Shown here one piece after another: positions 15,662-31,544 of a stretch of DNA of 53,649 nt. Location of the stretch: NCBI GenBank assembly GCA_009781625.1, contig WQVI01000001.1:1-53649 (forward strand), given 5' to 3'. Below the pieces are notes generated by a model that was given only the letters and a program-made list of their open reading frames with translations, was not told the origin of the DNA and made no database searches. Each line of letters opens with the position of its first letter. The first letter of the stretch is position 1. The position numbers and the translations under genes were made by a program. The DNA comes from Defluviitaleaceae bacterium. Lineage in GTDB: Bacteria > Bacillota > Clostridia > Lachnospirales > WRAX01.

Positions 15662-15687
15662 AAATGCCCCCAAACGTTGGGGGCATT
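15662..15687 (+). terminator. Intrinsic terminator after the DUF1266 gene
   Basis: aaatgccccca-aacg-ttgggggcatt followed by gtgttta. Confidence 0.7.
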
Positions 15688-15701: not shown

Positions 15702-16079
15702 CTTATACTAATCTAAGTTATACCAATATCCCACCAAAGCAGTAGCAAAAACTTGTCTTTTTGCACCAAGGACATCGTCAGCTTCTCCTTACGTGCCCTT
15801 ATACTAATCTAAGTTAAAAATCATTGAAAGCTGCCCTGCAAAACTACTTGAATCGCTGTAGATTTCGCAGCTTGCTTTCAATGTTTTTAACGTAAGATTA
15901 GTATTAGGCACGCCGCGTCGTCGCTTCCTTGCCTTGATGCAAAAATCCTGCGTTTTTCTGTTACTGTTTTGGTGGGATATTGGTATAAAAATCATTGAAA
16001 GACTGCGCCGCGAAACGACTTGAAGCGTTGTCGCTTTCGCGGCTTGTTTTCAACGTTTTTAACGTAAGATTAGTATTAC
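15702..16079. repeat. Mosaic repeat field, order A-B-A-C1-A'-B'-C2-A'
   Basis: A (cttatactaatctaagtta) lies at 15702 and 15798; its inverted form (taacgtaagattagtatta) lies at 15888 and 16060. B (15721-15797) is an inverted copy of B' (15907-15985). C1 (15816-15888) and C2 (15986-16060) are direct copies of a ~72-nt hairpin. Confidence 0.8.
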
Positions 16080-16750
16080 TTGCTTTCAAGCTCTGCCAGA
16101 GCAGTCTCCATAAATCCAATAACTTCCTTCGTATGCGGCTCGCAATGCCCTGACGCATAAATCTCAAAATCATATTGCTTATAGGCTTCAATTATATTAC
16201 AAAAGCTTACAGTATCTTCCTGCTTCCCCCAATAATACGCCTTCCCGTCTGCCACCCCAAAGTTGTCCCCGGCGTGCAAAACCTTGTCCACAGCATCATA
16301 CACGGTGATGCTATCCTCTGTATGCCCGGGCGTATGGAAAATTGTGATGCCATCTTCCGGAAAATGCATAACGCCCTCAAACAGCAAATTTGGCGGAAAT
16401 TTGCGCACCTCGCCGGTAAAATATTGGCCAGCATCCTTAGCCCGTTGCACCTGCATATCCCAATTTTTCTCCATAAGTTCATAACAAAGCTTGTGGGCCA
16501 CTATCGTGCTGCCTTCAAGCACCCAATTGCCCCCGGTATGGTCCCAATCGTGATGGGTATTAATAACAACTATTGGCTTTGGGTCATCCCCAATATATTC
16601 CAGCATAGCATCAACACAGTCTCGCCCAATGCCGGTATCAATGATAAAATTATGCTTAACACCAAGTATAACACCCATATACACATCAGCATCGGCATTT
16701 TCCTTTGTGCAAAACAAAATATTGCGGTCACTTATTTTCTTTATCTGCAT
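16076..16750 (-). CDS. MBL-fold metallo-hydrolase
   Basis: VINTHHDWDHTGGN (HxHxDH motif), plus later HTPGHT and SGH. Confidence 0.85.
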   Translation of the reverse strand: MQIKKISDRNILFCTKENADADVYMGVILGVKHNFIIDTGIGRDCVDAMLEYIGDDPKPIVVINTHHDWDHTGGNWVLEGSTIVAHKLCYELMEKNWDMQVQRAKDAGQYFTGEVRKFPPNLLFEGVMHFPEDGITIFHTPGHTEDSITVYDAVDKVLHAGDNFGVADGKAYYWGKQEDTVSFCNIIEAYKQYDFEIYASGHCEPHTKEVIGFMETALAELESK

Positions 16751-31377: not shown

Positions 31378-31544
31378 CTAGGGCCTGTTCCCACTATAAG
31401 AAAATGCAGATTTGCGAGGCGATTTTTCGCCAGGCAAGGAGCCGACGACGACGCGTGTCTAGAGACACGCTAGGAGAAGGCGACGCAGAATGGCGGAAAC
31501 ATCGACCGCAAATGTGCGTTTTCGTTAGTGGGAACAGGCCCTAG
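31378..31544. repeat. 167-bp MITE-like palindromic element with 19-bp perfect terminal inverted repeats
   Basis: ctagggcctgttcccacta (31378-31396) pairs with tagtgggaacaggccctag (31526-31544). Inner imperfect pairing joins gaaaatgcagatttgcg with cgcaaatgtgcgttttc. The central perfect palindrome is gcgtgtctagagacacgc. Confidence 0.75.

Follow-up and report, generated by a model that had tools for sequence, protein, structure and literature searches.

Among plant MITEs, Tourist elements (PIF/Harbinger) make TNA/TAA target-site duplications and Stowaway elements (Tc1/mariner) duplicate TA, and insertions of one MITE into another are classic in plants. IS630-type elements duplicate TA, and IS5/PIF-type transposases are the usual source of TNA duplications. 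The Correia elements of Neisseria (CREE/NEMIS) are palindromic MITEs of about 100-150 bp that lie near genes, are co-transcribed and form hairpins that affect mRNA processing; they duplicate TA and carry IHF sites and promoter elements, and we know of no parent IS for them. The attC sites of integrons are palindromes, though imperfect ones, and their sequence counts for less than their structure, unpaired bases and strand.

RUP of S. pneumoniae is introduced by Croucher et al. (2011; PMC3049150, citing Oggioni & Claverys, 1999) as a 107-bp MITE with TIRs like those of IS630-Spn1. The same account has RUP making target-site duplications and pneumococcal repeats inserted into one another (PMC3049150). 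For bcr1 of the B. cereus group, compensatory changes that keep a structure double-stranded at the level of RNA have been described (Klevan et al., 2007; Kristoffersen et al., 2011), as relayed by Delihas (2011; PMC3184786).

Here we analyse a block of repeats at 15702-16079 of a 53,649-nt stretch of DNA (the window) from a Defluviitaleaceae bacterium. The source assembly comprises 1.71 Mb in 115 contigs, is 73% complete and has 47% G+C; the window lies on its contig C1, and other contigs of this genome are cited below in the same way, with the word contig to set them apart from the modules C1 and C2.

Results

A first-pass annotation of the window read the block as a mosaic repeat field with the module order A-B-A-C1-A'-B'-C2-A', A' and B' being inverted forms of A and B. 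Sequence readout and a repeat finder recovered every module in this order between 15702 and 16079. Module A (CTTATACTAATCTAAGTTA, 19 nt) starts at 15702 and at 15798 in 100% identical copies; these are exactly the two sites in the window when up to three mismatches are allowed (0.00 expected), and the repeat finder also returned the A/A' inverted pairs. As the annotation had said, modules C1 and C2 are direct repeats (86% identity across 76 nt) and B' is inverted B (34-nt arms, 91% complementary). It had also quoted the inner helices correctly, CTGC-A-AAA-CTAC / GTAG-A-TTT-C-GCAG for module C1 and CCGC-G-AAA-CGAC / GTCG-C-TTT-C-GCGG for module C2, and these do differ by two double-sided pair swaps and by an A.C mismatch that becomes G-C. 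At the right edge of the block, the last A' overlaps the stop codon (16076-16078) of ORF 16076..16750 on the minus strand, again as claimed. This ORF encodes an MBL-fold protein (PF00753), and the insertion offset is 0 for the 227-codon frame.

The unit A-C1-A', which the annotation had likened to a MITE, does behave as one: it is 102 nt long, is accompanied by a 3-bp duplication and has at least 12 dispersed copies. Searching the genome for the modules separately placed each of them at many unlinked loci, and a lack of additional copies, named in the annotation as what would speak against it, is not what the genome shows. By BLAST, A-C1-A' occurs at 10 further loci of its own genome with 96-100% identity, next to C2-type and more divergent copies; together with a covariance model (see below), this gives 12 close and about 25 total loci of the type that we call MITE-1, on different contigs. 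An alignment that includes the flanks shows that the similarity between copies spans precisely TAC...GTA, 102 nt, and the TIRs read TACTAATCTAAGTT / AACGTAAGATTAGTA. The first four nucleotides of module A (C + TTA) are flank and target-site duplication, the element proper being TAC...GTA. Identical TNA triplets (TTA, TGA, TAA or TCA) flank 15 of the 20 TAC-type copies and the remaining five differ by one base; further TAC-type families likewise come with TNA duplications.

An unreliable longest-ORF heuristic, which miscalls the MBL gene of the window itself, places MITE-1 copies almost always between genes. On one of the two strands any TNA spells a stop codon, and many copies lie against or overlap a long ORF's stop codon. 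A sister family of 116 nt is also present in the genome (contigs C10:22586-22701, C34:14532-14647, C50:9026-9141, C53:7919-8034 and C14:20898-21014); it carries the terminal 10 nt of MITE-1 (TACTAATCTCAATT...), TNA duplications that are identical in three of five copies, and the same apical loop as MITE-1 (CTTGGAGCGTTG).

Modules B and B' turned out to be the two arms of a second family, MITE-2, which is found intact, with B and B' adjacent and TA on both flanks, as a 160-nt element at contigs C2:11765-11924, C10:15332-15491 and C23:7119-7270. Its TIRs are TACCAATATCCCACCAAA / TTTGGTGGGATATTGGTA, and the intact element folds at -73.5 kcal/mol. Both families have the features of MITEs, being shorter than 300 bp (102 and 160 nt), overlapped only by spurious ORFs, bounded by TIRs and target-site duplications, and dispersed at unrelated loci; it is very unlikely that the short ORFs within module B are genes. 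A gene for a 20-codon hydrophobic peptide at 15713-15775 on the minus strand is likewise improbable, since this stretch belongs to the left arm of MITE-2 and its apparent paralogue in B' is the opposite arm. Elsewhere in the window, at 31378-31544, lies a 167-bp MITE (CTAG flanks, TIR GGCCTGTTCCCAC) that is the commonest repeat of the genome, with about 30 copies, several of them at contig ends, and whose central ~55 bp are 81% identical to the centre of MITE-2. The shared B-type centre thus amounts to one core with three end types, TACCAATATCCCACC, TAGCCATTAAACTTGAAAA (contigs C47:7061 and C83:2662) and GGCCTGTTCCCAC.

The module order of the block can be accounted for by these two families. 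In our reading, which we consider very probable from the sequence comparisons, 15702-16079 would be three nested MITE insertions after the MBL stop codon and not a repeat field: the modules of the first-pass annotation stand, and its notion of a mosaic field gives way to three transposon insertions of two MITE families, which explain the block better. The two arms of MITE-2 are split by a MITE-1 of the C1 subtype, and an older MITE-1, itself split by MITE-2, supplies the first A and the last A' as its two ends. When 15706-15720 and 15988-16075 are put together, the product is a 103-nt MITE-1 (C2 subtype) that is 98% identical to the intact copy at contig C97:1317-1419 and is flanked by TTA on both sides (15703-15705 and 16076-16078).

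The proposed history has three steps. A 102/103-nt MITE-1 (C2 subtype, TIR TACTAATCTAAGTT) would have inserted at the TAA stop codon of the MBL gene, duplicating TTA, so that the stop codon was regenerated. Its left copy of the duplication is at 15703..15705 (+), followed by its left fragment at 15706..15720 (+) with TIR TACTAATCTAAGTTA; the right fragment spans 15988..16075 (+), where the right TIR ends, and includes the inner helix arms 16008-16019 / 16030-16042 and the apical loop TTGAAGCGTT at 16020-16029; the right copy of the duplication, 16076..16078, is the MBL TAA stop codon on the minus strand. A 160-nt, IS630-like MITE-2 (TIR TACCAATATCCCACCAAA) would then have entered this outer element at a TA that lies 14 nt in from its left end, duplicating TA. 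The target is the final TA of the left fragment (15719-15720, +), the left arm (module B) opens with the TIR at 15721..15801 (+), the right arm (module B', recovered as an inverted pair and in intact copies) is at 15907..15985 (+), and the second TA follows at 15986..15987 (+). Lastly, the apical loop of MITE-2 would have received a younger MITE-1 (C1 subtype) at a TTA, which was duplicated. The target of this copy within the left arm is at 15799-15801 (+) and the right copy of the duplication at 15904..15906 (+). Between them, at 15802..15903 (+), lies a complete 102-nt element that forms a single long hairpin and is 100% identical to contig C13:5084-5185, with TIRs at 15802-15815 and 15890-15903, inner helix arms at 15836-15847 / 15858-15870 and the apical loop at 15848-15857.

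That the insertions took place is shown by their target duplications and by paralogous empty sites, which are available for the two inner ones. Intact MITE-2 copies have the centre GTGCC(C/T)TTAGGCAC, and the window has GTGCCC-TTA-[MITE-1, 15802-15903]-TTA-GGCAC. Likewise, an uninterrupted MITE-1 reads AAGTTAAAAATC (AAGT-TA-AAAATC across the junction), and the window has AAGT-TA-[MITE-2, 15721-15985]-TA-AAAATC. For the outer insertion, two genomes of the same genus yielded no orthologous empty site, their MBL homologues being only about 50% identical and non-syntenic. The order of events, from outer MITE-1 to MITE-2 to inner MITE-1, follows from the nesting topology, and it agrees with the identities to the nearest relatives, 100% for the inner MITE-1, and 98% for the outer MITE-1 and 97-99% for MITE-2 (copy on contig C2) as the older parts.

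A second case of nesting occurs at contig C78:1498-1810 (locus L056/L009), where a MITE of the 167-bp family is split by a MITE-1 at 1642-1742 with the duplication TCA. A preference of MITE-1 for hairpin loops was considered and discarded: the copy in the window did enter the MITE-2 apical loop, but the one on contig C78 is in an arm.

Upstream of the block, a native terminator-like hairpin follows the DUF1266 gene at 15663..15687 (+), with an 11-bp stem that contains 6 GC pairs and a T-rich tail after it. Prior to the insertions, some 15 nt separated this hairpin from the stop codon of the MBL gene, which is convergent and probably shared it. A MITE composite of 371 bp now parts the two, so that the three elements should all lie in the MBL 3' UTR, provided that none of them stops transcription.

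Modules C1 and C2 represent two subfamilies of a single element, and we examined the fold that they have in common. As RNA, the complete A-C1-A' forms one long hairpin of -39.8/-42.7 kcal/mol on the two strands; relative to shuffled sequences, the two strands of C1 have z-scores of -9.2 and -8.9, and those of the C2 stretch, which is truncated, have -2.6 and -4.7. The annotation had argued for covariation from these two copies and had allowed that it might vanish with more sequences. Instead it generalises to many more, under shuffle tests, in a model-fitted and in a structure-blind alignment alike. In the former, which comprises 31 distinct copies and is itself fitted to the structure, 91.6% of cells pair and 31 of 40 pairs show double-sided changes; shuffling gave a mean of 17.8 such pairs and reached the observed value in none of 500 trials, and sliding the partners brought pairing down to 34-42%. 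In the structure-blind MAFFT alignment, 89.9% of cells pair and 25 of 40 pairs covary, versus 7.5±1.7 after shuffling and at most 14 with slid partners. Within the model-fitted alignment, covariation extends over 12 of 13 pairs of the inner helix, with up to four pair types per position, and over seven of nine pairs of helix 1.

The unpaired parts of the hairpin are conserved as well. At the junction of the first two helices, 2 nt stand unpaired opposite 3 nt in 26 of 32 clusters, and the internal loop has 4-5 nt opposite 3 nt in 28 of 32. The apical loop, of 9-12 nt, is non-palindromic and conserved with the consensus (K)TGAAGCRT. A copy from another family of the order (genome G088) has quite different stems, the loop CTTGAAGCGTTG that is also the loop of C2 in the window, and a TTA duplication. 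The apical-loop word was also considered as an over-represented genome motif and rejected, since TTGAAGCGT occurs 11 times versus 13.6 expected and the excess of TTGGTGCGC lies in coding sequence.

Intermediates of compensation can be seen in the same genome. The copy on contig C15 is half-changed (CCGCG / CGCAG, with a C.A mismatch), the copy on contig C91 is compensated (CTGCG / CGCAG, with T-A), and the new A.C mismatch of the C1-subfamily consensus is resolved by the other route, C>T, in the copy on contig C78.

These elements belong to a superfamily of hairpin MITEs of about 100 nt that are imperfect palindromes over their full length. A covariance model (R1), built from 22 copies, matches about 25 loci in the own genome and also occurs in eight of the 19 other genomes of the family (hence in nine of 20), and in one of 76 genomes from other families of the order, G088. 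Including related metagenome contigs, 58 copies were collected in 32 clusters (88% identity, reverse-strand duplicates removed). A gapped end-to-end pattern added eight TAC-type copies from metagenome contigs, with inner helices that diverge far beyond the difference between C1 and C2; the flanks of the metagenome contigs are 77-89% identical to the own genome, and the copies therefore come from relatives. A scan with 18-mers across 185,579 species genomes gave chance-level matches only, in unrelated taxa, so the elements are lineage-restricted or the own genome is masked there.

Two classes of ends can be told apart in the superfamily, TAC-type ends with TNA duplications and TAG-type ends (TAGCAATTC, TAGCGAACG and others) with TA duplications, on elements whose arms and cores are clearly homologous. 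Two TAG-type copies (contigs C46:10267-10387 and C30:18351-18471; L070, L071) hold an extra perfect palindrome of 20 nt (GTCGGCGCTAGCGCCGAC) in the apical loop, which brings them to 121 nt. Genomes G017 and G001 (loci L112-L131) have TAC-type ends (TACTAATCCYGATTAAAATC) and TNA duplications together with quite different inner hairpins, one assembly having 31 pattern matches. The same TAC-type ends on different inner hairpins imply that ends and cores recombine or diverge independently.

The ends of the TAG-type elements and of MITE-2 resemble those of IS630-family insertion sequences. The own genome encodes a partial IS630-family transposase (PF13358, E=2e-26) at contig C78:6825-7239 (L040), which is cut short by the end of the contig; the terminal repeat TAGTCATTAAACTTTAAAAC, with TA just before (TA|TAGTCATTAAACTTTAAAAC), contains the stop codon of this transposase. 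The ends of an IS630 copy in a relative (L100:1075-1962) share CCAAAACAGTAACA with MITE-2, and those of another (L098, TAGCTATTCCGTTTTAAAA) match the TAG-type MITE-1 subfamily L077 (TAGCTATTCCGTTT). MITE-2 and the TAG-type relatives duplicate TA, whereas the MITE-1 class of the window makes 3-bp TNA duplications. Probable membership in the IS630-derived group is supported for MITE-2 and the TAG-type relatives.

An autonomous parent of MITE-1 should have the ends TACTRATYYNRRTTAAAATC and make TNA duplications. TIR scans of the own genome and a degenerate, family-wide TIR pattern found no autonomous partner with a TACTAATCT-type TIR in the carriers, which are incomplete MAGs, and the twenty regions examined for an autonomous partner of the TAC type were all MITEs or a solo end. 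Transposases of the IS5/PIF types (PF01609, PF13586 and PF13359) were not found in these incomplete carrier genomes either, bar one IS4-like match in G018. Since all carrier genomes are incomplete MAGs, a parent may have been missed.

Discussion

A question raised by these elements is why a hairpin of changing sequence should be kept. The first-pass annotation took the compensated pairs of the C modules as a sign of selection on structure. This is plausible, but in a palindromic transposon it is not the only route to compensated arms. Going by the pattern of changes among the copies, we infer that a hairpin requirement acting on master copies would explain the compensated differences: multiplication would be confined to master copies in which the long hairpin is kept, along with the conserved loop at its apex and its asymmetric internal loops, and individual insertions would then decay. 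Compensated differences between subfamilies and uncompensated singletons within them fit such a history. Our best guess for the role of the hairpin is that it serves as a single-stranded or cruciform substrate of transposition, or that the insert is tolerated because, at the 3' ends of genes, it resembles a terminator that works in both directions; we think it less likely to be a dedicated small RNA. A further proposal is that the ~60-nt C core might be a functional single-stranded module (RNA or ssDNA) and not passive filler. It draws on the covarying stems, on the conservation of the loop YTTGRWGCRYTG and of the asymmetric internal loops, and on at least two transposon end classes that carry the core, one of them IS630-like in architecture yet TNA-duplicating; we put it forward tentatively and think it rather unlikely to hold. 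If true, the superfamily would be a mobile structured element that needs its fold in order to transpose, or one that provides the host with a function such as bidirectional termination at the gene ends that it targets.

The conserved fold could also belong to an RNA. The C hairpin would then be primarily a structured RNA (an sRNA, a 3'-UTR stability or RNase III element, or a bidirectional terminator) riding on transposon ends, and the covariation would reflect selection on an RNA fold. The strong covariation of the stems alongside a conserved apical loop and asymmetric internal loops speaks for such an RNA; an A-run and a T-run border the hairpin, many copies sit at gene 3' ends, and in 24 of the 32 cluster representatives it is the reverse strand that gives the better RNA fold. 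The mismatches of the inner helix point the same way, 24 A.C versus 7 G.T on the model strand corresponding to G.U on the reverse, although this split is post hoc, the asymmetry over all helices is not significant (50 versus 39; 16 versus 9 clusters, p=0.23), and G.T is the most tolerated mismatch in DNA hairpins too. Moreover, genes read into the element from either side equally (about 17 versus 17). Rfam 15 gave no match at E<=0.1-1, with sub-threshold chance matches only in the window and nothing at E<=0.1 in seven loci of other subfamilies, and a scan of the window found no promoter-like site. A terminator scan returned only weak 5-bp sub-hairpins inside C1 and C2, and the A5 and T5 that flank the full hairpin pair with each other. 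With neither an Rfam match nor a promoter-like site nor an orientation bias, we do not retain the small RNA gene with a terminator-like end that the annotation had offered beside the MITE, and we regard the hairpin as being improbable as a primarily RNA-level structure.

Compensated arms may also arise with no selection at all, either by template switching between the arms, which homogenises quasi-palindromes, or because subfamilies were born as foldback copies of one transposon end. Quasi-palindrome-templated mutation is established in E. coli. In keeping with such a process, the whole element is palindromic and covarying, the protein-bound TIRs included, and the A.C mismatch of the C1 subfamily was resolved in two ways, by A>G (contigs C91 and C15) and by C>T (contig C78). 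Homogenisation should erase asymmetry, however, and the junction, the internal loop and the apical loop persist in 26-28 of 32 clusters and in another family. Separate foldback births would not share a loop, and young copies (contigs C9 and C15) contain uncompensated singletons. The conserved asymmetries and the non-palindromic loop argue against arm homogenisation as the sole cause, and we judge an origin of the compensated arms without selection to be unlikely. Finally, the block might consist of unique DNA that was rearranged locally, in segments or in tandem, or might be a site-specific recombination substrate of the attC or REP-RAYT kind, in place of cut-and-paste MITEs. Conserved structure over variable sequence, with conserved unpaired bases, does recall attC and REP. 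Against this, the modules occur separately at many unlinked loci, each with its own target duplication, the copies are not in cassette arrays and have no fixed orientation, and the TIRs match IS630-type ends, so that we give these explanations next to no credence.

With nested MITE insertion as the preferred reading, the mosaic is ordinary transposon biology, and its annotation as a small-RNA gene or as a regulatory array should be avoided. It offers a clean and datable example of a MITE in a MITE in a MITE in an uncultured gut lineage of Clostridia, and it delimits repeat families that had not been annotated before, that interrupt MAG assemblies and that lie on stop codons; the covariance model now allows them to be masked or annotated. 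Family-wide covariation with a conserved loop, compensatory intermediates, and the coexistence of TA- and TNA-duplicating relatives make the superfamily a reasonable system for the study of MITE hairpin function. Two features are mildly unusual, namely that TNA-duplicating elements are relatives of TA-duplicating, IS630-like ones, and that a conserved hairpin core is common to different end classes.

The same features set the superfamily apart from its closest counterparts. RUP resembles MITE-1 in its Firmicute host, its size of about 100 nt, its AT-richness and its one long hairpin, and it resembles the present elements in general in its IS630-family-like TIRs and in its intergenic position, often at gene 3' ends. 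The likeness claimed here is one of architecture, and MITE-1 differs in duplicating a 3-bp TNA and not TA, and in a hairpin core that spans two TIR classes across a bacterial family. Insofar as it is described in the account of Delihas cited above, bcr1 is likewise a MITE-like repeat of Firmicutes with compensatory base-pair changes; it is about 155 bp long, has 5-bp direct repeats and is transcribed, whereas MITE-1 is known from sequence alone. Correia elements are also small palindromic MITEs beside genes, but in a different host phylum. Tourist and Stowaway show the same two duplication signatures, TNA as for the TAC-type ends and TA as for the TAG-type ends and MITE-2; unlike in plants, both signatures occur here on elements with homologous arms and cores. 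Unlike attC sites, MITE-1 has neither cassette arrays nor a GTTRRRY core and possesses TIRs and target duplications, so that it is not a member of that group; nor do its copies, which are dispersed singles with TIRs and duplications, belong with REP-RAYT. Nothing in the nested MITE block is unprecedented, and the compensatory changes in its hairpins are real and typical of such elements.
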